From positions 14,618-78,617 of the forward strand of contig CAMDGM010000003.1 of NCBI GenBank assembly GCA_945898015.1: DNA of 64,000 nucleotides. Direction: 5' to 3'. Source of the stretch: PVC group bacterium (GTDB lineage: Bacteria > Verrucomicrobiota > Kiritimatiellia > CAIKKV01). Below, one piece after another: positions 7,483-21,745 of this stretch. The notes under the pieces were generated by a model, which saw only the letters and a list, made by a program, of their open reading frames with translations, made no database searches and was not told the origin of the DNA. Both the position numbers and the translations under genes were made by a program. The stretch's first letter is position 1. The number at the start of each line of letters is the position of its first letter.

Positions 7483-8748
7483 ATGAGCATGCGCAGGCTT
7501 GCCGTGTTGGTCTTGGCCGGACTCGCGACGGTGTCCGCGGCGGATGTGACGAACACCGTGGATCCCAAGGCCGAAGCGGTGCTTCAGTCCGTATCCGACT
7601 ATTTCAAGGCGGCGCCGTCCTTCAAGGTGGAGATGGAAGCCGAGACCCGGATCGAGGCCGAGGATATGAAGCAGGAGTTCACCACCCGGGCCGTCCTGGC
7701 GGTGAAACAGCCGGACAAGCTCGCGATGACGGTCAAGAACAGCATGATCGGGACGATGGTCCTGGTGTGCGACGGTACCAATGTCACCGCCTTTCTCCCG
7801 GCCTTCAACCGGTACACGGTCAAGCCCTCGGGCGGATCGCTGGAGCAGCTTTCCCTGGTCATGGGGGGGGCGTCTCCCGCCTGCCTGCCGGTCGTTTCCG
7901 CGCTGATGGAGCGCGACCCGTATGACGCGCTGGTGAAAGACGCGTCCCGCATCCAATACCTGGGCGAGGAAAAGCGGGGCGAGGTTGCCTGCCATCGCTT
8001 GAAATTCACGCATCCGGAGTTTGATTGCGAGGCCTGGATCCGGACCGGCCCCCAGCCGTTGATCGAAGCGGTCAAGCCCTGTCTGGCCAAAATGGGACTG
8101 GCGGGAAAATTGCCGCCCGGCATGAAGACCGACGTGATTCTCAACCTGACGGGATGGGAAGTTGGCACGGACCTGCCCGCCGCTTTGTTCGCCATGACGC
8201 TTCCGCCGGAGGCCCAAAAAGCGGACTCCCTTTTCCCGGGGCAGTCGGAGGAAGAACCGGTGGAAGTGGATCCCACGGAGGCCCTCCGGCTGAAGCCGGC
8301 GCCGACGTTCCGGTTGCCGTTACTGGCGGGCGGGACATTCGATTTGGCGGCGCAGAAAGGCCAGGCCGTTTCCGTGCTGTGCTTCTGGACCACGTGGGCC
8401 GGCCCCTGTCGGCTCGCCCTTCCCATGCTTGAAAAACTGGCCGCCGCCTTCAAGGACAAAGGGGTGGCGGTCGTGGGCATCAATCAGCAGGAAGGGGATG
8501 CCGCGATCAAGGAATTTCTGGGGAATGCCGGGGTGACGATTCCCGTGGCGCTCGATGGCGGCAGCGAGGTGGCCGGGCTTTACCAGGTGGCGGGGGTCCC
8601 CCAGATCGTGGTGGTCGATAAAAGCGGCCTCGTGCGCGAGGTCTATATGGGCTATGGAAAAAGCCTCGAGGACGAATTGCGGGTTGTGCTCGAGGCGCTG
8701 ACCGCCCCGCCGCCCGCGGCTCCTCCGGGCGCGCCGGCCGGGCCATAG
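7483..8748 (+). CDS. Secreted LolA-like (DUF2092-type) domain fused to TlpA/ResA-like thioredoxin-fold domain (atypical WAGPC site)
   Basis: Signal peptide MSMRRLAVLVLAGLATVSA; C-terminal 'FWTTWAGPCRLALP...VVGIN...GVPQIVVVD' thioredoxin-like fold; GGGAGG RBS. Confidence 0.6.
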   Translation: MSMRRLAVLVLAGLATVSAADVTNTVDPKAEAVLQSVSDYFKAAPSFKVEMEAETRIEAEDMKQEFTTRAVLAVKQPDKLAMTVKNSMIGTMVLVCDGTNVTAFLPAFNRYTVKPSGGSLEQLSLVMGGASPACLPVVSALMERDPYDALVKDASRIQYLGEEKRGEVACHRLKFTHPEFDCEAWIRTGPQPLIEAVKPCLAKMGLAGKLPPGMKTDVILNLTGWEVGTDLPAALFAMTLPPEAQKADSLFPGQSEEEPVEVDPTEALRLKPAPTFRLPLLAGGTFDLAAQKGQAVSVLCFWTTWAGPCRLALPMLEKLAAAFKDKGVAVVGINQQEGDAAIKEFLGNAGVTIPVALDGGSEVAGLYQVAGVPQIVVVDKSGLVREVYMGYGKSLEDELRVVLEALTAPPPAAPPGAPAGP

Positions 8749-8781
8749 ACACTCCGCATTTAGTCCTGACCCTTTGGCGCC

Positions 8782-9525
8782 TTACAAAACCACGGACAGC
8801 ATCAGGCTGCCCCAGAACGGGTTATCATCCTTGTAGAGGGCCTTCGCGCCAGCTCGGATATCCGAGTCCGGCAGCCAGGCATATTGGATGCCGGGCGTGA
8901 GGGTGACGGTTTTCGACAAGGCGAACGACACCTTGGCGCCCGTGGTTACATCGTTCAAGGCCGCATCGTCCACGCCGAAGTAGAAGGCGTTGTAATCCTC
9001 GTCCGCGGCGCCTATCGAGGCGATCAGCTCCAAGGTGGTGGTATCGCCAAGGGCGATTTCCTTTGAAAGTGCCAACGAGGCATAGAACCCGTCGGCCTCC
9101 TCCACATCGCGGTAGACGGAAAGGGTGGGGACCGCCAGCGACGCGTCCGGCAGGGACAGGCTTCCGTAGACTTCCCGCGTACTGGAAACATCTGTGTTGG
9201 GGAACAGGTACTCGATCACGCCGACGCCATATTCCATGGCGCCCCACTGGCCGCCGTAGGAGACGGTGAGATCGACCTCCGAGAAGTCGGCGTGGGTCTC
9301 TCCGCGGTCGGTGGCGTCGTAGTTCGCCCAGACGTTCACTCCGAATCCGTCCTTTTCCACGTTCAAGGCGGGCTGGATGACGGCTTCGTCGTTCAGCATC
9401 TGGCCGCGCCATACGTAGGCGGAGAGGATCGGCAGGTCCACGCCCGCATCCGCGCCGCGCGCCGTTGTTCCCGCGCCCAGAATTCCAGCCGTCGCTATCA
9501 GCATCAGTCCCGTTGCCGTCCGCAT
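8782..9525 (-). CDS. Outer-membrane beta-barrel protein (hypothetical)
   Basis: Signal peptide; alternating hydrophobic beta-strand pattern; 'YVWRGQ' block; length ~250 aa. Confidence 0.5.
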   Translation of the reverse strand: MRTATGLMLIATAGILGAGTTARGADAGVDLPILSAYVWRGQMLNDEAVIQPALNVEKDGFGVNVWANYDATDRGETHADFSEVDLTVSYGGQWGAMEYGVGVIEYLFPNTDVSSTREVYGSLSLPDASLAVPTLSVYRDVEEADGFYASLALSKEIALGDTTTLELIASIGAADEDYNAFYFGVDDAALNDVTTGAKVSFALSKTVTLTPGIQYAWLPDSDIRAGAKALYKDDNPFWGSLMLSVVL

Positions 9526-9775
9526 GTTCGTACTCCCTGGTTGTTGTTTCAGTCCGTAATTCCCTTAGCAAGGGCAATGCCAACTCGGGCTAAAGAGTTG
9601 TAAATGACTCACGGTGAATCGGTTGCAAGATAAATGACGAGAAAGTCGCCATTCATTGGATGCGACAAGATGGTCGAATAATGCTTTGAGTGCTACAGAA
9701 TTGTTCCATCGGTTGATAGAGCGGAGACTTCTATATACAGGGGTCACGCTGTGCGGCTGTCCGGAGGCCCGGCGG

Positions 9776-10408
9776 TTATGGCGACCGTGATTCGCGTTTC
9801 GTCCCCGCGCTCACCGGGATGAGAATTTCGTTGCGGCGCAGGAACCAGGGGGTGAAGGGGGGATTGTAGCGGGCCCACACGGGTTCGCCCTGGACGGTTA
9901 AGCCCTTTGCCGCGATCCACGTTTCCAGCTCCTTCTTATGTTGCCGGTAATGCTTTTCCGACCAGACACCGGAGTAGCGAATCGCGGCCATCCGGCGGCC
10001 AGGAATCTGGCGCAAGGCGACTTTCGGATCGGTTGGCGCGGGGAGGTTTTGCAGGGTCGAGCCGGCCGGCATCATGAAGCTGACGGCCCAGCCGCCCGGG
10101 GCGGGTTCCTGGCTGACGGGGGCGGTCATGGCGATTTTCTCGCTCCGCGCCTCCTGTGAAACGGGGGCGGTCATGGCGATGGTGTTGCTCGTCTGGTTGT
10201 CGCCGGAGATGTAGCGAAAAAGCCGGCGGAATGCCTTATTCCCGGCCTGTTCCAGCGAGCCTTCCACGATGGTTTCCGCGAGCACGACCGGCGCGTAATC
10301 GCGGAGTTCGCAGGCTTCAGCTTTCTCCGTCACCGTATACTTGGCTTCTTCGAGGGCCATGGCGTTTAATCCTCCCAGAATAAGGATGAGGACAGAATGG
10401 ATGTGTTT
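9776..10408 (-). CDS. SOUL/HBP heme-binding family protein
   Basis: Signal peptide MKHIHSVLILILGGLNAMA; SOUL-like blocks (YEVREY-like 'CELRDYAPVVLAE', 'NPPFTPWFLRRNEI'). Confidence 0.6.
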   Translation of the reverse strand, partial: KHIHSVLILILGGLNAMALEEAKYTVTEKAEACELRDYAPVVLAETIVEGSLEQAGNKAFRRLFRYISGDNQTSNTIAMTAPVSQEARSEKIAMTAPVSQEPAPGGWAVSFMMPAGSTLQNLPAPTDPKVALRQIPGRRMAAIRYSGVWSEKHYRQHKKELETWIAAKGLTVQGEPVWARYNPPFTPWFLRRNEILIPVSAGTKRESRSP

Positions 10409-11576: not shown

Positions 11577-13697
11577 TTATTCTGTCCGGGGTGCGGCGGA
11601 ATGGAGGGTATACCGGACCGAGCGGGCTGTGCCGTTCGTGGCGGGATCGAGCAGGGTGATGAGCGCGGTGCAGGTGCGGGCCTTGGACTGGTAGCCGTCC
11701 GTCCAGCCCGGGGACAATAGCAGGGCGCGGGGGCGGTCGAATTGAATATCCATGGCGCCGTTGAAGCGTTCGACGCGAATCCGTTCGGCGGCGGGAAAGG
11801 CGTCGCCGGGCTTGGCGAGGACCCAGACGTTGGACGACTGCACGCGGATCACGGCTGCGGTCTGGGCGGGCAGCTCCTGCAGGAAAAGCGGCAGGGTTTC
11901 GTAGAGTTCGGCGACCGGCACGGCGTTGGAGCCGGGTGTGACCACGGTGTCCACGGTCACGCCGGCGGCCCCGGCCGTGAAGGTGCGGGTGTAGGCGTAG
12001 CCGGAGTTGGTTTCCGTTTGCGTGTCGGGCGTCAGGAGGGGAATGGCGCCTGACACCGTGATGACGGCCTGGGTGGCGTCCAGATGACGCGTGGTTTGCG
12101 GCTGGCGGAGGCGGGCGGTGGTGAGGAGGGCGCCGGCGGCGGTGCAGCCGCTGACCGCGTGGATGGGCCAGGCGCGCCATTCGGACCAGGAATCGAACAC
12201 TGCGCCCTGCACGCCGCGGCGGCGGCCGGCGAGGGTGACGCCGGAGGCCGGCGTCCAGAAGATGGAAAGCTGGCCGCCGCCGTAGCCGTAGGGCAGGTTG
12301 TTGTGGCCGAACGACCGGCCCACGGGTCCGGTGTGGATCGCAACGGCGTAGGTTGGGAACCGGGCGATGACGAAAGCGTCACCGAAGGTGCGGATGAAAG
12401 AGCCGTCGCGCCGGTAGGGGGAGAGGAGCAGGGGCGACTCTGCGGCGGCCAGGGCGCGGAGCCGGGCGAGGTGGCCGGCGGGCGCGTGGATGGAGGCGAA
12501 GCGGGCGCGGTAGCTCCAGTGGGATTCATGCCAGGCGCGGGCCTTGAGGACGGGCGGCTTGACGAGGTTGAGCGTGCCGGCCAGCTTGGCGGGGATGGCG
12601 GCAAGTGTCGGGTCGTCGGGCAGGGTGGCCAGATAGATGGCGTCGTCGCTGAGCATGGCGGCGGATTGCAGGCGGTCGGGGAACGGCCATTGATCGTGCG
12701 CCGGGTCGGCGGAGGTGCGCGAGCTCATGGCGCTGGGGCCGGAGGCGCCTTTGTTGTCGGGATTGGGAAAGCAGAGGTGGGCGCGAAGCGCGAGGGCGTT
12801 GCGCATGGCGTCGCGGGCGAACGGCCAGTCGGAGGCGAGCGCCGCCCAGGAGCCGAAGAACAGGCTGATGCCGTTGTAGGAGGTGTCGAAGCAGCCGTTA
12901 TCCACGAAATAGCCGGCCTCGTTGAAGAAGGCGGGGTTCGTGAAGAGGGGTCGGGAATAGGACTCCGCGAGGGCGGCCATGCCGGGGTCGCCGGTGGCTT
13001 TTTGAACATACCACAGGCCGACGGGCGCGAAGAGATCCATGTCGGTCATGAGCCCCTTGGGGCCCCAGGCGGCGAGGCGGCGGCTGAGTTTTTTGAGGCC
13101 GGTTTCGAAGGCGGCCCGGGCCTCCGCGGGGAGGGCCGTTTTACAGAGGCCGTAGGTGTCGGCGATCCAGATGAGGTTGCCGCCGAGGTAGTCGGCGCGG
13201 TCAGAGCCCTGCGGGTTCTGTTCGTACAGGGTGTCGAGCATGATCAGGTCGATGATGGCGAGGGTGAGGGCGCGGAGTTGGAGGGCGCGGTTATCGCGGT
13301 AGGGGTTGCCGGGCCAGGACCAGGCGGCGAGGCGGGCGAGCGATTGGCAGGCGCCGGGATCGGCGGGGAGGGCGAGTCCGTTGGTGCCCTCGATGGCGGC
13401 GAGGGTGAAGGCGGGCGCGGGGAGCAGCGCTTCGGCGATCGCGGGCGGGGTGAGGGACAGGAGCCAGAGCTGGTAGCGGGCGTCGTCATCGGACGGCGTG
13501 ATGGCGGTGAACGCCTGGGGGGTGACGGCGAAGTCGTTGGAGGCGAGGGTGGCGAGGAAGGTGCGGAGGGTTTGCTGGTAGGGGTGATGGGCGGGCAGGG
13601 AGGTGACGGGGAGTGTGACCTGGACATAGGCGGCGGGTGCCGCCGTGGCGAGGAGTGCGGCGGACAGGGAGGTGAGCAGGCGGGTGAGTAATGTCAC
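11577..13697 (-). CDS. Secreted 706-aa hypothetical protein (possible polysaccharide-lyase/heparinase-II/III-like; unverified)
   Basis: Clear signal peptide MTLLTRLLTSLSAALLATAAPAA; long non-repetitive ORF; 66 bp downstream of the co-oriented PEP-domain gene. Confidence 0.45.
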   Translation of the reverse strand: MTLLTRLLTSLSAALLATAAPAAYVQVTLPVTSLPAHHPYQQTLRTFLATLASNDFAVTPQAFTAITPSDDDARYQLWLLSLTPPAIAEALLPAPAFTLAAIEGTNGLALPADPGACQSLARLAAWSWPGNPYRDNRALQLRALTLAIIDLIMLDTLYEQNPQGSDRADYLGGNLIWIADTYGLCKTALPAEARAAFETGLKKLSRRLAAWGPKGLMTDMDLFAPVGLWYVQKATGDPGMAALAESYSRPLFTNPAFFNEAGYFVDNGCFDTSYNGISLFFGSWAALASDWPFARDAMRNALALRAHLCFPNPDNKGASGPSAMSSRTSADPAHDQWPFPDRLQSAAMLSDDAIYLATLPDDPTLAAIPAKLAGTLNLVKPPVLKARAWHESHWSYRARFASIHAPAGHLARLRALAAAESPLLLSPYRRDGSFIRTFGDAFVIARFPTYAVAIHTGPVGRSFGHNNLPYGYGGGQLSIFWTPASGVTLAGRRRGVQGAVFDSWSEWRAWPIHAVSGCTAAGALLTTARLRQPQTTRHLDATQAVITVSGAIPLLTPDTQTETNSGYAYTRTFTAGAAGVTVDTVVTPGSNAVPVAELYETLPLFLQELPAQTAAVIRVQSSNVWVLAKPGDAFPAAERIRVERFNGAMDIQFDRPRALLLSPGWTDGYQSKARTCTALITLLDPATNGTARSVRYTLHSAAPRTE

Positions 13698-13763
13698 GAG
13701 GGATTCCTTAATAGTGGAGGGACAGGCCGAGGTTGGGACCGTTGAGGGATTGTTCGGTTTTTT

Positions 13764-16397
13764 TCATAGTGAAGGCGGGATGGCCTCCGGGGGCAGTCGG
13801 TAGCAGACGGCGCGCTGCCGGAGCGAGTTGGCGTTAAGGATCAGAGCGCCGTCATCGGGCAGGTGGGTGGCGTCGATCAGCCGTACGGCGTGCGTCCATT
13901 CCTTTTGATCGGGAAGGAACGCCGTCAGGCGATTTTCGGTGCGCTCTTCGAAGAAGGCGGTGTTCAGGGCGTTGCCGGGTTTGCCCGGGAAGAGCGCGAG
14001 GTAGAGGATGTCGCGCTCGACGAGTTCGTTGAAGAAATGCGTGCCGAGCGACACGTCGGGGATGAGGTCCGCCCGCATGGCCACGATCTCGCCGAGCACG
14101 GAGACTCCGGCGATGTCCACGAACGAGACAGGGACCCCGAGGGCGGGCGTGGTGGTGCCCCAGCGGCCGGGGCCCAGGAGCATCACCGTTTTCTTGGCGA
14201 GTTCAGGCAGGTGGGTGATTTCCCCGATCAGGCGCGCGACGGCGTAGCGGTCGCTTTCCCGCAGGGTGCTATACACGGCGGGGGCCACGTAGAGGATCCA
14301 GTCGATTTTCATCTCCACGCTGTTGCCGATCACGGCGCCGCGGGATTCCAGCACCACATCGTCGGGCGGGATGGTGTCGGGCGGATCGCCGAGTGCGTCT
14401 CCGGTGCCGCGGACCTGGAGGGGGCGGCACTGGACGAGGTTGATCTTGAATTCGTCGGCCTCGGCGAAATTGAGCGTGAACTCGACGTCCACCGGGTGCC
14501 GGTAGGCCGCCTGGAGGGTGTCGAGCATGTCCCGCATGTCGGTGACGAAGGAGGTTTCGGTGAGGAGGCGGTCGAACGTGAGCACCCAGGGCGATTCGGC
14601 TCCGGGCCGGGCGGAGTCGCGGGCGCGTTCGCGGGAGGCGAACATGGACAACGGGATGTCGGGGTGCCGGTCGATGATGTCCTTGAAGGAGACGGAGGCG
14701 AGGTGGTTGGCCTCGAGGTCGAGCACGTCCACGCGGCGCTGGGCGTATTGGACGACCTCGTTGAAGTCGGCTTCGGGCCGGCGGGTGGGCGCGTTGAGGG
14801 CCACGATGCGGGTGTAGTCGTCATCGGACCGGTCCACGGCGCGGGTGCCCATGCCGAAGACGAGGCGGATCATGCCGGCCCGGGGGTCGATGGCGGGGTC
14901 CCAGACGTAGGGGTTGAAGGAGAAGGCCACGCCGGCGGACTGGGGGAAGAAGTAGCTGCCGTAGGCGTTGCCGGAGACGCGCTGGATGAGGAGGCCCATC
15001 TGCTCGTCCTGGGTCATGAGGCCGCGGCGCTGGCGGTAGGTGAGGGCCTCCTCGCTCATGGTGCTGGCGTAGACGCTGCGGACGGCGAACAGGAAATCCT
15101 CGAGCCGCTTGTGGGAGCCGCCCTGGTTGGCGCAGAAGACGCTTTCATATTTGCCGGCGAAGGCGTTGCCGAAGTTGTCCTCCAGGAGGCTGGAGGAGCG
15201 GACGATGACGGGGGACTGGCCGAAGTAGTCGAGCATGTCGGCGTACTGGCGGACGATGTAGTCGGGGAATTCGCCGGCATGGATGCGGCGGCGGGTGGTT
15301 TCGGTGTCGTCGTCAGGCCCTTCGGTGGCCTTGTGGCGGTGGATCATCCACCAGCAGCCATTCTGGACGAGGTAGGTGTAGAAGACGTCGGCGCCGACGA
15401 AGAACGAGTCGTGCATTTCCAGGAGCCGGCCCCAGCGGTCGGGGTCGGCCTTGCGGAGGATGGCGCGGGCGAGGATCATGCCCACGGCCTTGCCGCCGAT
15501 GAGGCCGGTGCCGATCATGCGGCGGCGGATGGCCAGCAGATCGCGCAGGGTGAGGTTCCGCTCGGCGAGGGCGAGGACCTTCTCGTCGTGGGAGATGAGC
15601 ATGCGGAGGATCTTGTGGAAAAAGGAGGCGGCCTTTTCGGGGGAGCCGCCGCCCTGGTCGAGCTCGTTCTGGACGACCTGGGCCTCGGAGAAGGTTTTGG
15701 TCCAGTACCCAAGTTGGGCGCTGGCGGCCTCGGAGCGGGACCAGGGCGAGTTGGCGAGGATTTCGGTGATGATGCCGCTCTGGTTGACGGGGACGAACCG
15801 GTCGGCCTCCCACGCATGGAGCATGTACATGGTGGGGGAGTAGCGGTATTGGACCTTGATGGGCTGGAGGTAGAGTTTTTCCCGGTGGCGGTAGACATCC
15901 ACCAGGATCTGGGTGGTGGAGGCGATTGGCTTGAGGGCGTGGAAGGAGTGGAAATTGCGGAGGATGGCGAAGTAGGCGATGGCGGCGCGGTCGTAGAGGT
16001 AGGGGCAGGTGAGCATGAAGAAGTTGCCCAGCATGCGGTCGCTGCACCAGTCGGGGGCGAGGTCGGAGAGGCAGTCGAAGAGGTAGAGGCAGCCGCGCCC
16101 CTCCTCGTTGATGACGCGGTGGATTTCCGAGAGGAAGGGCTCGAAGCCGCGGTCGGGGTTGAGGGGGATGACTTCGGCGCCCTCCTCGGGGGTGAGGAGG
16201 GGCTCGTGCTGGGCGAAGCGGAAGTAGAAGATCTTCTGCCGGTTTTCGCGGGCGTAGGCGGCGTAGGCGGGGATGAAGGGGAGGTAGTCGCGGACGTTTT
16301 CAACCTGCCAGACGATGTTGTCGCCGGGCATGAGGCCGCGGAAGACATGGTCCAGCGCGGGCAGGCCGGTGCTGAGCTTGATCCGGAGCTTGGGCAT
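13764..16397 (-). CDS. PEP/pyruvate-binding (PPDK_N/PEP-synthase ATP-grasp-type) domain protein with N-terminal degenerate KaiC/RecA-like domain
   Basis: N-terminus 'LSTGLPALDHVFRGLMPGDNIVWQVEN' resembles KaiC/RadA 'G.pGLDe.l.GG.p.g' but lacks GxxGxGKT; residues ~250-877 resemble the PEP-synthase nucleotide-binding domain (GLIGGKAVGMILARAIL); no TSHAAI phosphohistidine domain seen. Confidence 0.5.
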   Translation of the reverse strand: MPKLRIKLSTGLPALDHVFRGLMPGDNIVWQVENVRDYLPFIPAYAAYARENRQKIFYFRFAQHEPLLTPEEGAEVIPLNPDRGFEPFLSEIHRVINEEGRGCLYLFDCLSDLAPDWCSDRMLGNFFMLTCPYLYDRAAIAYFAILRNFHSFHALKPIASTTQILVDVYRHREKLYLQPIKVQYRYSPTMYMLHAWEADRFVPVNQSGIITEILANSPWSRSEAASAQLGYWTKTFSEAQVVQNELDQGGGSPEKAASFFHKILRMLISHDEKVLALAERNLTLRDLLAIRRRMIGTGLIGGKAVGMILARAILRKADPDRWGRLLEMHDSFFVGADVFYTYLVQNGCWWMIHRHKATEGPDDDTETTRRRIHAGEFPDYIVRQYADMLDYFGQSPVIVRSSSLLEDNFGNAFAGKYESVFCANQGGSHKRLEDFLFAVRSVYASTMSEEALTYRQRRGLMTQDEQMGLLIQRVSGNAYGSYFFPQSAGVAFSFNPYVWDPAIDPRAGMIRLVFGMGTRAVDRSDDDYTRIVALNAPTRRPEADFNEVVQYAQRRVDVLDLEANHLASVSFKDIIDRHPDIPLSMFASRERARDSARPGAESPWVLTFDRLLTETSFVTDMRDMLDTLQAAYRHPVDVEFTLNFAEADEFKINLVQCRPLQVRGTGDALGDPPDTIPPDDVVLESRGAVIGNSVEMKIDWILYVAPAVYSTLRESDRYAVARLIGEITHLPELAKKTVMLLGPGRWGTTTPALGVPVSFVDIAGVSVLGEIVAMRADLIPDVSLGTHFFNELVERDILYLALFPGKPGNALNTAFFEERTENRLTAFLPDQKEWTHAVRLIDATHLPDDGALILNANSLRQRAVCYRLPPEAIPPSL

Positions 16398-16413
16398 ATC
16401 CCCCCCGGCGTAA

Positions 16414-17838
<1,425 letters not shown>

Positions 17839-17933: not shown

Positions 17934-18707
17934 TCAGGACCAGCAGCGTTGCAGCATCTGCCAGAGCTGGGCATACATGGCGTTGATGGCGATGGCGATC
18001 AGCAGCAGGAAGGCCAGCCGGCGCAAGACGGGCTTGGAGAATTTGGCGCCGATCCGCAAGCCGAGGAGGGAGCCCAGCAGGACCACGGGTGAGAGGGCCA
18101 CGCCCCAGGCCATGCCCAATAAGGTGGACTTGCCGAATGCGCCATAGAGCAGGGCCAGTTGAATCGGCACCATGCTGATGAACGTGGCAAACAGGAAGGC
18201 GCGCGTCCGCTCCACGGTCCAGTCGTGGGTCATGACCCACAGCACCAGCGGCGGGCCGCCCATGGAGCAAAGGCCGCCGGTGAATCCGCTCAGGCCGAAG
18301 GCCGCCAAATCCCAGCCCTTGTGCAGCCGGGGGCGCGGCCGGGGCTGCCAGGCGGCCTGCAGGATCACCAGGAGGAGCAGGACCATGCCGATCCAGAACT
18401 TGATCTGGGCCGGCGGATGGCTGGCCAGGATGCTGAGCGCCCAGATCCCGAGCAGCATGGTGGTGGCGCGGATGGCCACCGAGAAGCCGACGATTTTCCA
18501 GGGCACCGCGTGGCTCAGGTGGTGCACGCCGCTGGCGGCCTGCACGGCGGTGCAGACGGAGGAGATGGCAATGGCCATGGGCACGGGAAGCCCGATCATC
18601 AAAAACAGGGGCACGGAGAGCAGGCCGAAGCCAAAGGCCACCATCCCCTGCAATAATCCGCCGGCCAGCACAATCAGCACGGCGGCGATAATCTGGTGGG
18701 CGTCCAT
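17934..18707 (-). CDS. TSUP family sulfite/anion exporter (TauE/SafE)
   Basis: 257 aa; 8 TM helices; duplicated 4-TM halves typical of TauE/SafE. Confidence 0.7.
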   Translation of the reverse strand: MDAHQIIAAVLIVLAGGLLQGMVAFGFGLLSVPLFLMIGLPVPMAIAISSVCTAVQAASGVHHLSHAVPWKIVGFSVAIRATTMLLGIWALSILASHPPAQIKFWIGMVLLLLVILQAAWQPRPRPRLHKGWDLAAFGLSGFTGGLCSMGGPPLVLWVMTHDWTVERTRAFLFATFISMVPIQLALLYGAFGKSTLLGMAWGVALSPVVLLGSLLGLRIGAKFSKPVLRRLAFLLLIAIAINAMYAQLWQMLQRCWS

Positions 18708-18737: not shown

Positions 18738-19511
18738 TTAAGTCTTCCACCAGTATTCCGGACTGATGGCGGGAAGTGAAAACGTCCGAAAATGAGGCGG
18801 CAGGCTCTCCAGCAGCGCCTGGGCTTTGCGGCCGAGCGCGGTGGCGGCCAGCTCGACGTTGCGCCGGCCGACCTCGACAGAAGCGTGGATCCGGGGATCC
18901 AGTCCGGAAATGCCGTCGTGCCCGACGTCCGTCTTCCAGTCTACGGGCGCCAGCGGCGCCTGGCCCAGAGCCGGCAGGTCGACCAGGTCCGGGTAGAAAA
19001 ACATCATGTTCGAGGTTTCCCACTTGGCGGCGTGATCGGAGCTGGATTCGGGGCCCTGGCTCAAGGATATCTCCCACAAGCCGATGCCGGTGACGGTGCC
19101 ATCGGCGACCACCGGGACCAGGGCCTGGTTGATCATCGCGAGCTGCTGGGAGACATTGTGGCCGGACACGCCGATGATCACCCGTGCGCCCATGGCCTTG
19201 ATGCGGTCGAACAGGGCGGTGACCATAGCGACTTTCCAGGGGGCCTCTTCGGGGTGGAGTTCTTTCGAGCCCATGTCCGTCCGCGCATAGGGGAAGTAGA
19301 GGGGCGGATAGACCACGCCGCCGAAGGTTTCGGCGCACTTGATCAGGATGGCATGCGCCTTCATGGCGTCGTTTCCAAGAGGCAGGTGCCGGCCGTGCCA
19401 CTCGATCAAACCGAACGGCACATAGACCACGGGGAATCGGCGAAGTGCCTCTTCCAGTTGGAGGGGCCGCATGAATTGCAGTTGAACGTCAGTGGATAAG
19501 TGAGGGTCCAT
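18738..19511 (-). CDS. Creatininase-family (creatinine amidohydrolase fold) protein
   Basis: 'GLIEWHGRHLPLGND' matches creatininase 'GS.EQHGPHLPLGTD' metal-binding block; 'GVSGHN'. Confidence 0.7.
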   Translation of the reverse strand: MDPHLSTDVQLQFMRPLQLEEALRRFPVVYVPFGLIEWHGRHLPLGNDAMKAHAILIKCAETFGGVVYPPLYFPYARTDMGSKELHPEEAPWKVAMVTALFDRIKAMGARVIIGVSGHNVSQQLAMINQALVPVVADGTVTGIGLWEISLSQGPESSSDHAAKWETSNMMFFYPDLVDLPALGQAPLAPVDWKTDVGHDGISGLDPRIHASVEVGRRNVELAATALGRKAQALLESLPPHFRTFSLPAISPEYWWKT

Positions 19512-19520
19512 AGGGTTCCT

Positions 19521-21428
19521 TTATTGGGGGGATCGGATCCAGCGGGCGATGGCGTCGGCCGCGAGGCGGGGTTTGGGCGCCCGGCCGGGGAACCATTTGT
19601 TCACCGGCTGGTCGAGGCAGACGCCGTGCATGAAGTTGTAGGTGGCCCGGCGCAGGCAGGCTTCGAGCTCCACCGGATCCGGAGCGCCCGGTTCCGTGAA
19701 AGGAATTTCGTTGCAGGCGAATCCGCCGGCCGGCCGGGGCAGGAGCCGGATGCTGTAGCGGTCCGGCTCCCGGGCCATGGGGCTGTGCGCGGTGAGCGCG
19801 AAGCGATGCCAGAAGGCGGACTGCAGGAGGCCCGCTGAAAAACATTGCCGGACAAACTCCAGGCCGTCCACGGTTTCCTGAAGGGTCTGGGTGGGGAACC
19901 CGGTCATCAGGTAGGCGTGCACCCGGATGCCCGCGTTGGCGAAAGCCGAACAGGCCCGGGCGGCATCCTTGAGCGTGATGCCCTTGTCCATCAGCGCCAG
20001 CAACCGGTCGTGCGCGCATTCCAGGCCGCCCGTCACCGCCACGCAACCGGCGGCCGCCATCTTAGCGGCCAGCTCCGGGGTGAACCCTTTTTCGAACCGG
20101 ATGTTGCCCCACCAGACGGCGGGCACGCCGCGGGCCGTGAGGCGGTCCGAAAGACCGGCGAGCAGGCCGGGGGCCAGCGCTTCGTCGGTGAAATGGAATC
20201 CGGCGCGGCCCGTGCGGGCGATCAGCGTTTCCAGCTTGTCCGCGAGCGCCTCGGCCGGCGTGGGGGAATAGCGGGCGATGTAGGGAAGCGAGACGTCGCA
20301 GAAGCGGCACCGGTGCCAGTAGCAGCCGCGCGCGGCGGGCAGCTTGAGCCACAGGCCGTCCGACCAGAGCCGGTGCATGGGGTTGGCCGATTCGGCCAGT
20401 CCGATGTACTGGTCGAGCGGCAGCGCCTCATACGCCGGCGTGATGGTCGCCAGGGGCGGCGGATCGGGCTCGCCGGCCGGGACGTCGAGGAATACGACCT
20501 TGCCGGCGCGCCGGACAAAGGTGCGGACGAGTTGATCATCACCGATCTTTCCGGCGGCATGGTGGATGGCGCGAAGGAGGGGGAGTTCGCCGTCATCGAG
20601 CGTGACGTAATCCACGAGATCGAACAGGCGGGGCTCGGTGAGGCTGCGCAATTCGGTGTTCACATAGCCGCCGCCGAGCGCGATGCGGATGGCGGGGTTT
20701 TGTTTTTTCAGGACGCGGGCGATGCGGAGCGCGGCATATAGCGTGCCCGGAAAGGGAACGGTCAGGCCGGCGAATCCGGGCTTGTGCCGGGCGCCGGCTT
20801 CGGAGGCGAGATCGTCGATCAGCCGGTCCGTGAAAGAGGGCGGGGCGGCGAGCGCGGCGGCCAGCGGCGTGAAATCAGAGGCGCTGACCGCGAGATGGTC
20901 GGCATAGCGGGCGAAGGCGAAGCGGGGATCCAGGCCGTCGCGTATGGCATCGGCGAGGTCGTCGAGGAAGAGGCTGGCGAGGTGGCGGGCCTTGTCGCGC
21001 ACATCGGCGGGCCCGAAGGCGTCGAGGGGGCTGGGCGTGGCGTCGAGGGGTTGGAAGCGGGGGCCTTCCGGCAGGTAGGCGCGGGCGGCGATCCGGTAGG
21101 CGAGGGTGTCGTTTCGGTTTTGGAGAAATTGAATGACGGGGTCGATGGCGGATTGGCAGGCGGGCGCGTGCTTGAGGACGTGGCGGACGGACGGGGCGCG
21201 GGAGGCGGGCCGTGCGGCGCGGAGCGCGGCTTCGATTTGGAGGAGTCCATCGCGCGAGAAGAGGCGGAGCGCGAGGGCGAGGGAAAGGTCCTCCTGGATG
21301 CAGGGCTGGCCGCGGACCTGGAGGAAACCAGCCAGCCAGGCGGTGGCGGGGTAGGGCGCGTTGATCTGGACCAGGGGCGGGGTCAGCAACAGCACGGGGC
21401 TGGCGGTTGGCGGACGGGAGGATTTCAT
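19521..21428 (-). CDS. B12-binding-domain radical SAM protein (Cys triad CYWHRCRFC)
   Basis: N-terminal Rossmann-like B12-binding region; 'GCYWHRCRFCDVS' Cys triad; start revised to MKSSRPP because the upstream 56 codons are translation of repeat copy 5. Confidence 0.5.
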   Translation of the reverse strand: MKSSRPPTASPVLLLTPPLVQINAPYPATAWLAGFLQVRGQPCIQEDLSLALALRLFSRDGLLQIEAALRAARPASRAPSVRHVLKHAPACQSAIDPVIQFLQNRNDTLAYRIAARAYLPEGPRFQPLDATPSPLDAFGPADVRDKARHLASLFLDDLADAIRDGLDPRFAFARYADHLAVSASDFTPLAAALAAPPSFTDRLIDDLASEAGARHKPGFAGLTVPFPGTLYAALRIARVLKKQNPAIRIALGGGYVNTELRSLTEPRLFDLVDYVTLDDGELPLLRAIHHAAGKIGDDQLVRTFVRRAGKVVFLDVPAGEPDPPPLATITPAYEALPLDQYIGLAESANPMHRLWSDGLWLKLPAARGCYWHRCRFCDVSLPYIARYSPTPAEALADKLETLIARTGRAGFHFTDEALAPGLLAGLSDRLTARGVPAVWWGNIRFEKGFTPELAAKMAAAGCVAVTGGLECAHDRLLALMDKGITLKDAARACSAFANAGIRVHAYLMTGFPTQTLQETVDGLEFVRQCFSAGLLQSAFWHRFALTAHSPMAREPDRYSIRLLPRPAGGFACNEIPFTEPGAPDPVELEACLRRATYNFMHGVCLDQPVNKWFPGRAPKPRLAADAIARWIRSPQ

Positions 21429-21519
21429 AACGGGGGGAAGGATAGCGGGTATGGGCCGGGATGGAAAGCGGGATTGTCGGGCGGGTCTGGGAAGCGGGTT
21501 GGCTGCCTGTGCGGCTTGC

Positions 21520-21745
21520 GGCGTTTCGGGCGTTAATAGGCGGCCGCTTTCGGGCGGATCCGGTTTCCGGCTAGAGGCGTCGGGGCACGAGCCCACGCCA
21601 CCTCGCCGTCAACCGGCTGCGCCTCGAAACCGGCTCGCCCATTTCCGCCTGATCGAAACGCCGCAAGCCCAAGCCCCTCGCGCGCCCGAAGGGCGGCGCG
21701 CGATTTCGGTTCCCGTGAAAAGCCCGATGACAATATATTTACAAG
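21520..21745 (+). repeat. Same dispersed repeat family, copy 5 (full length)
   Basis: Near-identical modules to 6815-7062 (GGCGGATCCGG..., GGCGTCGGGGCACGAGCCCACGCC, CGCCTGATCGAAACGCCGCAAGCCC, GCGCGCGATTTCGGTTCCCGTG). Confidence 0.8.

Follow-up and report, generated by a model that had tools for sequence, protein, structure and literature searches.

A widespread protein family that joins a degenerate KaiC-like domain to a PPDK_N-type ATP-grasp domain and often neighbours NADP-specific glutamate dehydrogenase

The minus strand of a 64,000-nucleotide stretch of contig CAMDGM010000003.1, from a PVC group bacterium of the Kiritimatiellia (the whole stretch is called the window below), encodes a protein of 877 amino acids (aa) in which a KaiC-like domain, a helical linker, a PPDK_N-type ATP-grasp nucleotide-binding domain and a C-terminal domain follow one another (Table 1). 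We found that this protein represents a large, widespread and uncharacterised family, generically or wrongly annotated as pyruvate phosphate dikinase (PPDK) or phosphoenolpyruvate (PEP) synthase (PEPS), and that the conserved genomic partner of the family is gdhA, the gene for NADP-specific glutamate dehydrogenase (GDH). Judged from its sequence, the family is a variant among the PEP-utilising ATP-grasp phosphotransferases that belongs neither to PEPS, nor to PPDK, nor to rifampin phosphotransferase (RPH). We tentatively propose that the 877-aa protein is a cytoplasmic ATP-dependent phosphotransferase acting at the GDH node through an invariant histidine, His787, with GdhA or a metabolite of the 2-oxoglutarate/glutamate pair as acceptor; we regard this as possible, if somewhat short of probable.

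Domain architecture of the 877-aa protein

An earlier sequence-only reading of this DNA had proposed a degenerate KaiC-like N-terminus for the 877-aa protein, on the strength of the sequence 'LSTGLPALDHVFRGLMPGDNIVWQVEN'. This sequence was found in the protein with no GxxxxGK[ST] after it, and the N-terminus of the product, MPKLRIKLSTGLPALDHVFRGLMPGDNIVWQVEN, agrees with the earlier quotation. Fold comparison bore the proposal out. The N-terminal 296 residues of 27 family members were aligned and modelled with AlphaFold2 (AF2), giving a mean predicted local distance difference test (pLDDT) score of 81.7 and a predicted template modelling (pTM) score of 0.78. When the model was compared with the PDB by Foldseek, which was used for all fold searches, KaiC accounted for all of the top 50 matches (probability 1.00, E 1e-9 to 2e-8), over about 226 aligned columns and at 12-19% identity. 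Because all 50 were KaiC, the KaiC/RecA-like fold of the N-domain (about residues 1-205) is confirmed at the level of the model. Sequence comparison gave no comparable signal: Pfam had no match to the N-domain of the window protein, the weak matches that the 27 aligned members gave included no KaiC or ATPase family, and the N-domain profile reached KaiC in the PDB at a non-significant E of 1.6.

To place the ATPase motifs we took the register from two independent alignments, one by HMMER to 8jon_A and one by hhalign to what we take to be the KaiC sequence of S. elongatus, which agrees with the fragment shown in the 8jon_A alignment. The hhalign match is weak (E 0.01), yet it agrees with the HMMER register and with the fold match. 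The position of the Walker A motif GATGTGKT is taken by ENVRDYL (residues 33-39), and the family consensus there, 'dsi.DY', contains no GK[ST]. The catalytic Glu318 of the KaiC CII domain is aligned with Ala62, a residue that all 27 aligned sequences share, whereas the CII Walker B Asp378 aligns to Asp108, invariant in 40 diverse members, even in those only 35-54% identical. Since Walker A and the catalytic glutamate are replaced and the Walker B aspartate is kept, the KaiC-like core appears to be a pseudo-ATPase; having lost P-loop and glutamate, it is predicted to be unable to hydrolyse ATP in the manner of KaiC. The N-domain thus shares with KaiC the fold, the strand order, an 'S-x-G-x-x-x-LD...G-G' entry motif and the Walker B aspartate, but differs in its missing P-loop, in Ala62, in the absence of significant profile membership, in being a single KaiC-like domain fused to an ATP-grasp enzyme, and in having no clock context. 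Occurrence of the N-domain in other architectures was considered and rejected, as no Pfam domain of another kind occurred in the short matches, which were fragments or frameshift chimeras.

The second element of the sequence-only reading, a PPDK_N-type ATP-grasp domain without a TSH swivel, was likewise upheld. Pfam recognised one domain only in the 877-aa protein, PPDK_N (PF01326; residues 299-665, E 4.5e-48). Invariance was judged in the alignment of the 40 diverse members mentioned above, which are representatives of 50%-identity clusters; GGK303, R400-S-S-S-x-x-E406-D407, G415-K416, E639 and Q656-C-R658 are invariant in all of them. The 40-member profile matches the ATP-grasp domains of the PEP synthases 8a8e, 2ols and 9goj and of the Listeria RPH structures 5hv1 and 5fbs (E 1e-10 to 4e-6), with motif-for-motif correspondence at RSSxxxED...FAG and D-I-E...Q-x-R-P. 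The ATP-grasp domain is therefore complete in its motifs and predicted to be active. In all characterised PPDK_N enzymes, ATP is cleaved at the beta-phosphate, and the histidine of a mobile swivel domain carries the phosphoryl group to a second site (PMC4844700).

Homology to PEPS and PPDK extends over PF01326, with its conserved GGK, RSS..ED and E...Q.R motifs, and no further. Neither the swivel phosphohistidine domain (PF00391, T-S-H motif) nor the PEP/pyruvate triosephosphate isomerase (TIM) barrel (PF02896) was detected by Pfam in the 877-aa protein, which ends after a C-domain of 210 residues. With swivel and barrel missing, a pyruvate/PEP half-reaction by the known route is not available to it. 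Matches to the PEP synthase, Rph and PigC/RedH models of NCBIfam stayed far below threshold; all lie within residues ~330-665 and, save for one weak PEP-synthase match, within ~330-500. The best PEPS equivalog, NF004881, scored 55 bits against a cutoff of 883, and TIGR01418 scored 38.6 against 739.75; the Rph equivalog NF041857 scored 35 against 999 and was confined to residues 366-498. Since it stays below every PEPS, PPDK and Rph equivalog cutoff, the 877-aa protein is not a PpsA variant. The sequence-only reading had named a common, annotated PpsA variant as one finding that would speak against it: the architecture did prove common, but it is not PpsA. That the protein could simply be a PEP synthase or PPDK of the usual kind is suggested by the PPDK_N domain, by the names of homologue records and by the weak NCBIfam matches. 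This explanation is refuted by a domain content that lacks swivel and TIM barrel, and by a PDB profile match confined to the ATP-grasp part, while a genuine swivel domain, run as a control, readily found 29 PDB sequences with the same tools; we give it next to no credence.

The C-terminal domain was modelled with very high confidence (residues 660-877; pLDDT 89.7, pTM 0.89) and resembles nothing in the collections searched. The best Foldseek match among 350,542 PDB chains was not significant (E 0.07, probability 0.21), BFVD gave no significant match either, and there was no structural match to 5hv1; no PDB sequence-profile match was obtained, and 26 members searched against Pfam with E allowed up to 10 gave none. 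Two residues stand out as invariant across the diverse alignment: Gly754, in the loop GPGRWGT-x-x-P-x-LGVP, and His787, in S-L-G-T-H-F-F. In the C-domain model, His787 lies at the N-terminus of helix 127-135, after a loop of lower confidence. By eye, 'MLLGPGRW' and 'D.SLGTHFF' recall the swivel motifs 'ILV..T.P.W' and 'D.GG.TSHAA', but a diverged swivel domain was rejected as unsupported: hhalign to the swivel of E. coli PpsA gave only E 0.29 over 14 non-collinear columns, and the Pfam search of the 26 members included PF00391. The pseudo-KaiC N-domain and the histidine-bearing C-domain are thus two domain families absent from Pfam.

Among characterised enzymes, RPH offers a close parallel. 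Listeria RPH (5HV1) has the same PPDK_N ATP/Mg ligands (5hv1 and 5fbs align to the family profile at E about 3e-6), is of similar size (about 870 aa), has a domain order unlike that of PEPS and carries its catalytic histidine, His825, near the C-terminus, where the 877-aa protein has its putative one (PMC4844700). Unlike RPH, the 877-aa protein has neither a beta/beta/alpha swivel nor a rifampin-binding domain, and it has an additional N-terminal KaiC-like domain; its family is housekeeping-like in conservation and stands in a context of nitrogen metabolism, not of resistance.

Spread of the family and its genomic partners

The sequence-only reading had called the architecture unusual, which does not hold for its frequency. 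With an E limit of 1e-3, 7,958 proteins came up in a word-indexed search. The best 120 of these measured 850-1499 aa, 116 of them 850-920 aa, and these 116 were 57-89% identical to the query, with 96-100% query coverage where coverage was computed. The best 120 come from Kiritimatiellia, Lentisphaerae/Victivallales, Verrucomicrobia and Planctomycetota, and those that have a name are called 'hypothetical protein', 'PEP/pyruvate-binding domain-containing protein', 'pyruvate, phosphate dikinase' or 'pyruvate, water dikinase'. When 1.84 billion representatives of 50% clusters were searched exhaustively by HMMER with the profile of the N-domain, 1,159 clusters matched at E up to 1e-3, of which 244 reached E 1e-30 or better. 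Matches of at least 820 aa were nearly all about 825-920 aa long, and those below 820 aa were either collinear fragments or chimeras caused by frameshifts. One genome per species was also scanned, which gave 80 loci at 49-86% identity to the 877-aa protein, adding purple-sulfur Gammaproteobacteria, Syntrophaceae, Myxococcales/Polyangiaceae, Bacteriovoracaceae and Spirochaetes, as well as Omnitrophota, Anaerolineales, Binatia and Auribacterota, so that the family is present in at least 10 phylum-level groups. Full-length identity of at least 49% across phyla points to strong purifying selection. Our literature search found no paper on the combination of KaiC-like and PPDK_N domains.

Rare relatives of 1,469-1,499 aa are tandem duplications of the form [linker + PPDK_N + C-domain][KaiC-like + linker + PPDK_N + C-domain], and not, as also considered, Rosetta-stone fusions to a partner enzyme. 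In these proteins of ~1,480 aa (P0046, P0050, P0053, P0151), the last two or three linker helices accompany the ATP-grasp module, since module A of P0046 and P0151 aligns from about query residue 263, and His787 is kept as G-S-H in the duplicated module of P0046. The duplications hint that ATP-grasp/C-domain modules may act as pairs. Forms of 990 and 1,232 aa look like miscalled starts.

To learn which neighbours the family keeps, we compared three proteins of the window (877-aa protein, 706-aa secreted protein and GdhA) by tblastn with 84 related loci. GdhA, the conserved upstream neighbour that the sequence-only reading had passed over, was found within 6 kb in 37 loci at 62-87% identity. 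In 26 of the 84 loci gdhA lies at most 400 bp from the family gene, and it is present in 23 of the 51 loci that have at least 2.5 kb on both sides. Four arrangements occur. Where gdhA lies upstream, it is on the same strand in 19 loci and divergent in 9; where it lies downstream, it is convergent in 7 and on the same strand in 2. The linked loci belong to six phylum-level groups, namely Verrucomicrobiota/Kiritimatiellia, Lentisphaerae, Planctomycetota, purple-sulfur Gammaproteobacteria, Delta-type lineages and Spirochaetes. If a multi-megabase genome carries roughly one gdhA, we estimate that the two genes would fall within 6 kb of each other by chance in well under 1% of loci.

A neighbour census, made by all-against-all clustering of every open reading frame (ORF) of at least 100 aa in 82 non-redundant loci, gave the same picture. 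After the family gene and its shadow ORFs, GDH was the sole strongly recurrent neighbour (36 of 82 loci). Next came NrpR (PF01995 NRD1_2 plus winged helix; 11 loci), an NADPH oxidoreductase of the NfnB/GltD type (10 loci; TIGR01316 at 610 bits, cutoff 472) and its NfnA/SudB-like partner (7 loci; DHODB_Fe-S_bind). NrpR is a 2-oxoglutarate-responsive nitrogen repressor known from archaea, and NfnAB supplies NADPH. All three kinds of neighbour hence have to do with the assimilation of ammonium: GDH as the enzyme, NfnAB as the source of its NADPH and NrpR as a repressor that responds to 2-oxoglutarate. The NfnB/NfnA-type pairs (Nfn-type loci L013, L025, L028, L029, L037, L054, L069, L074, L075, L079 and L083) are consistent with a module supplying NADPH to NADP-GDH.

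NrpR homologues (PF01995 plus HTH_12; L019, L021, L022, L034, L041, L045, L049, L052, L053, L072 and L073) adjoin gdhA and the family gene in Planctomycetota, Lentisphaerae, Verrucomicrobia and Deltaproteobacteria, which suggests that NrpR controls GDH in those bacteria. The window itself contains neither NrpR nor NfnAB genes. At one of these loci, L045 of the Lentisphaerae, a second and distant ELFV-type dehydrogenase (8727-9875; 27% identical to the GdhA of the window) lies directly downstream, so that the family gene is flanked by two amino-acid dehydrogenases.

In the window, the product of gdhA matches NF006929 (765 bits, cutoff 536) and Pfam ELFV_dehydrog. Its stop codon lies 16 nt before the ATG of the 877-aa gene, with a G-rich ribosome-binding stretch in between, and no terminator-like hairpin was found between the two genes. 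The listed start of gdhA, a TTG at 17832, overlaps a sigma-70-like match, TTGACA-17-CATAAT. Since the NF006929 alignment begins only at residue 26, the true start is probably an ATG at about 17757, which places the sole strong sigma-70-like match of the window (11 of 12 positions, a consensus match only) just upstream of it, as a candidate promoter of a gdhA-877 operon.

Possible phosphotransfer at the glutamate dehydrogenase node

With an intact ATP site, no canonical carrier and an invariant histidine in the C-domain, we propose that the phosphoryl group would pass from ATP to His787, with participation of the glycine-rich GPGRWGT loop, and from there to an acceptor. The PPDK_N domain would bind and cleave ATP as in PEP synthase, PPDK and RPH; the C-domain would take the place of swivel phosphohistidine domain and substrate domain alike; and the N-domain would most likely be a platform for oligomerisation, docking or ligand sensing. 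The enzyme would work at the GDH node of nitrogen assimilation, and in the window its gene would be co-transcribed with NADP-gdhA. The acceptor could be GdhA itself, giving ATP-dependent control of GDH with a hexamer-type KaiC-like domain docked on hexameric GDH, or it could be a metabolite of the 2-oxoglutarate/glutamate pair. A more specific version, in which the family is an unrecognised ATP-driven partner of NADP-GDH, either a post-translational GDH controller, docked on hexameric GDH by a dead KaiC-like ring and modifying it through an ATP-grasp/His787 module, or a dikinase that activates a metabolite of the 2-oxoglutarate/glutamate node by means of a non-swivel phosphohistidine domain of novel fold, we consider doubtful, though worth entertaining.

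Several observations weigh against the proposal. gdhA is lacking within 6 kb in 47 of the 84 loci, so its association with the family is frequent and not obligate, and three of the four closest relatives (L006-L008) are among those without it. The adjacency could reflect co-regulation only. Further, none of Pfam, PDB profile search, Foldseek and hhalign detected similarity of the C-domain to swivel phosphohistidine domains, so that the role proposed for His787 is drawn from its conservation. Finally, no PPDK_N enzyme is known to phosphorylate another protein.

The same 47 loci would suit a dikinase or kinase of small molecules whose substrate, for instance a xenobiotic, an antibiotic or a glucan, has no relation to GDH, with gdhA nearby through incidental co-regulation. 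Glucan, water dikinase, phenylphosphate synthase and PigC act on small molecules or polymers. This is also the range of substrates of all characterised PPDK_N enzymes (PMC4844700). One Lentisphaerae-type contig (L001, 4512-7870) fits as well, with the family gene divergent beside genes for polyphosphate kinase 2 (PPK2) and glycogen phosphorylase. Conservation across phyla at the level given above is, however, atypical of resistance or xenobiotic enzymes; the 877-aa protein has neither an Rph-like substrate domain nor a swivel; and GDH, the sole neighbour to recur strongly, is found in six phylum-level groups and four orientations, in the company of NrpR and NfnAB-like genes. We judge such an enzyme rather unlikely, while keeping it in mind. 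On the L001 contig, PEPCK and an aminotransferase gene lie downstream, an alternative context, linked to energy or carbon, that we did not see elsewhere.

Enzymes in which PPDK_N and the histidine domain reside on separate polypeptides, such as phenylphosphate synthase and acetovanillone kinase, provide another precedent. In the beta subunit of phenylphosphate synthase and other PPDK_N-only polypeptides, as in the 877-aa protein, PPDK_N is not covalently joined to a canonical swivel, and the lack of a recognisable swivel would be explained if the 877-aa protein were the ATP-binding subunit of such a split dikinase, its phosphohistidine subunit being encoded by a gene of its own. But in the phenylphosphate-synthase type the subunit with the histidine domain is encoded next door, and no PEP-utilizer-type gene recurs beside this family in the neighbour census. 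A scan for the motif GG.[TS][SC]H found none in 1.1 Mb of DNA flanking the family genes, with the complete window among it, a result still compatible with a distal partner. The 877-aa protein moreover has its own conserved C-domain with an invariant histidine, and we hold a split enzyme to be quite improbable.

Could the protein be a regulator or scaffold that transfers no phosphoryl group at all? Its ATP-grasp domain would then be a nucleotide sensor reporting energy charge and controlling GDH or nitrogen genes allosterically. The predicted pseudo-ATPase domain favours this, and a context of GDH and NrpR would suit a sensor. On the other side, all catalytic ATP/Mg ligands of the ATP-grasp domain are invariant, more than binding alone usually needs, and the invariant His787 suggests chemistry. 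A purely non-enzymatic role is in our view unlikely, if not as improbable as a split dikinase.

GDH is one of two points at which ammonium enters biomass. To our knowledge, bacterial GDH is generally regarded as ATP-independent, and few dedicated protein regulators of it are known. If ATP-dependent modification of GDH or of a GDH substrate is indeed what the 877-aa family provides, models of nitrogen assimilation and of its energy cost would change for Planctomycetota, Verrucomicrobiota/Kiritimatiellia, Lentisphaerae, purple sulfur bacteria and syntrophic or anaerobic Deltaproteobacteria: PVC bacteria, purple sulfur bacteria and many anaerobes would turn out to assimilate ammonium with an ATP-dependent step so far unrecognised. 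It would also follow that a PPDK_N ATP-grasp is able to work where the canonical swivel domain is missing, and that evolution can reuse the KaiC fold for a module without catalytic activity. At a minimum, a widespread annotation error is corrected and two new domain families are defined.

The 706-aa secreted protein and other features of the window

The gene layout described by the sequence-only reading (ORFs, positions, strand, and a gap of 66 nt between the co-oriented genes for the 877-aa and 706-aa proteins) was reproduced, and more than 7,900 homologues place these features far beyond chance. Borne out, too, was the signal peptide assigned to the 706-aa protein, since its N-terminus resembles a signal peptide and those of 39 of 40 homologues resemble Sec signal peptides. 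The pairing of the two genes fared differently. The 877-aa protein might be imagined to work with the 706-aa protein, for example in an envelope or polysaccharide pathway, because the genes are co-oriented and no terminator-like site was found in the gap between them; for the latter reason transcription may read through from the one gene into the other in the window. In the comparison with the 84 related loci, however, no homologue of the 706-aa protein was found at any, including those of relatives 81-86% identical in the 877-aa protein, and the closest relatives (81-85% identical) carry other genes downstream. Conversely, reverse look-ups found no PPDK_N gene beside homologues of the 706-aa protein. 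In one Kiritimatiellia metagenome-assembled genome, JBIIYJ01, both proteins have homologues, but on different contigs (contig 40, L008, and contig 11, L085). One protein is predicted to be cytoplasmic and the other exported. A functional unit of the two was thus rejected by synteny in both directions, and we attach hardly any probability to it.

The 706-aa family comprises 92 proteins of about 700 aa, all named 'hypothetical', with a conserved mature start (YVQV.LP...LP.EH.YQ) and no relative in Pfam, NCBIfam or the PDB. Its members recur beside genes for GH172, BNR sialidase-like proteins, sulfatase, GlcNAc 2-epimerase, DUF4838 and GntR (L085-L087), in keeping with glycan degradation, and because of these neighbours it is probably a new family of glycan-active enzymes of PVC bacteria.

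Upstream of gdhA lie three further ORFs (Table 1), none of which recurs in related loci. A role of the 877-aa protein in anti-phage defence was considered and rejected, there being no match to the PADLOC models at E up to 0.01.

Table 1. Features of the window, with positions counted from its first nucleotide and residues numbered in the 877-aa protein
Feature	Positions	Strand	Basis
706-aa secreted protein, adjoining but outside the conserved unit	11577..13697	(-)	synteny, signal-peptide-like N-terminus
877-aa protein: KaiC-like predicted pseudo-ATPase, helical linker, PPDK_N ATP-grasp, C-terminal domain	13764..16397	(-)	ORF, homologues, Pfam
Residues 669-877, family-specific alpha/beta C-terminal domain	13767..14393	(-)	AF2 model, conservation
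His787 codon, invariant; candidate catalytic or phospho-carrier residue	14037..14039	(-)	conservation
Residues 297-668, PPDK_N-type ATP-grasp nucleotide-binding domain, predicted active	14394..15509	(-)	PF01326, invariant ligands
Residues 206-296, helical linker	15510..15782	(-)	helices in AF2 model
Residues 1-205, KaiC/RecA-fold domain, predicted catalytically degenerate	15783..16397	(-)	AF2 model, Foldseek
Asp108, Walker-B-like aspartate (FDCLS), kept and family-invariant	16074..16076	(-)	aligned to KaiC CII D378
Residues 33-39 (ENVRDYL), equivalent of KaiC Walker A GATGTGKT; P-loop lost	16281..16301	(-)	hhalign, HMMER
gdhA, NADP-specific glutamate dehydrogenase	16414..17832	(-)	NF006929, Pfam ELFV_dehydrog
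Sigma-70-like promoter match TTGACA-17-CATAAT, 11/12; candidate gdhA-877 operon promoter	17804..17832	(-)	consensus match only
257-aa hydrophobic membrane ORF, upstream of gdhA	17934-18707	(-)	
257-aa ORF, upstream of gdhA	18738-19511	(-)	
691-aa ORF with radical-SAM-like motifs, upstream of gdhA	19521-21596	(-)	motifs

Antisense to the genes for the 877-aa and 706-aa proteins run two long ORFs, of 864 aa (13863-16457, plus strand) and 535 aa (12084-13691, plus strand). Both are unsupported shadow ORFs of a kind typical of DNA with 62-69% G+C, and they could mislead gene callers.

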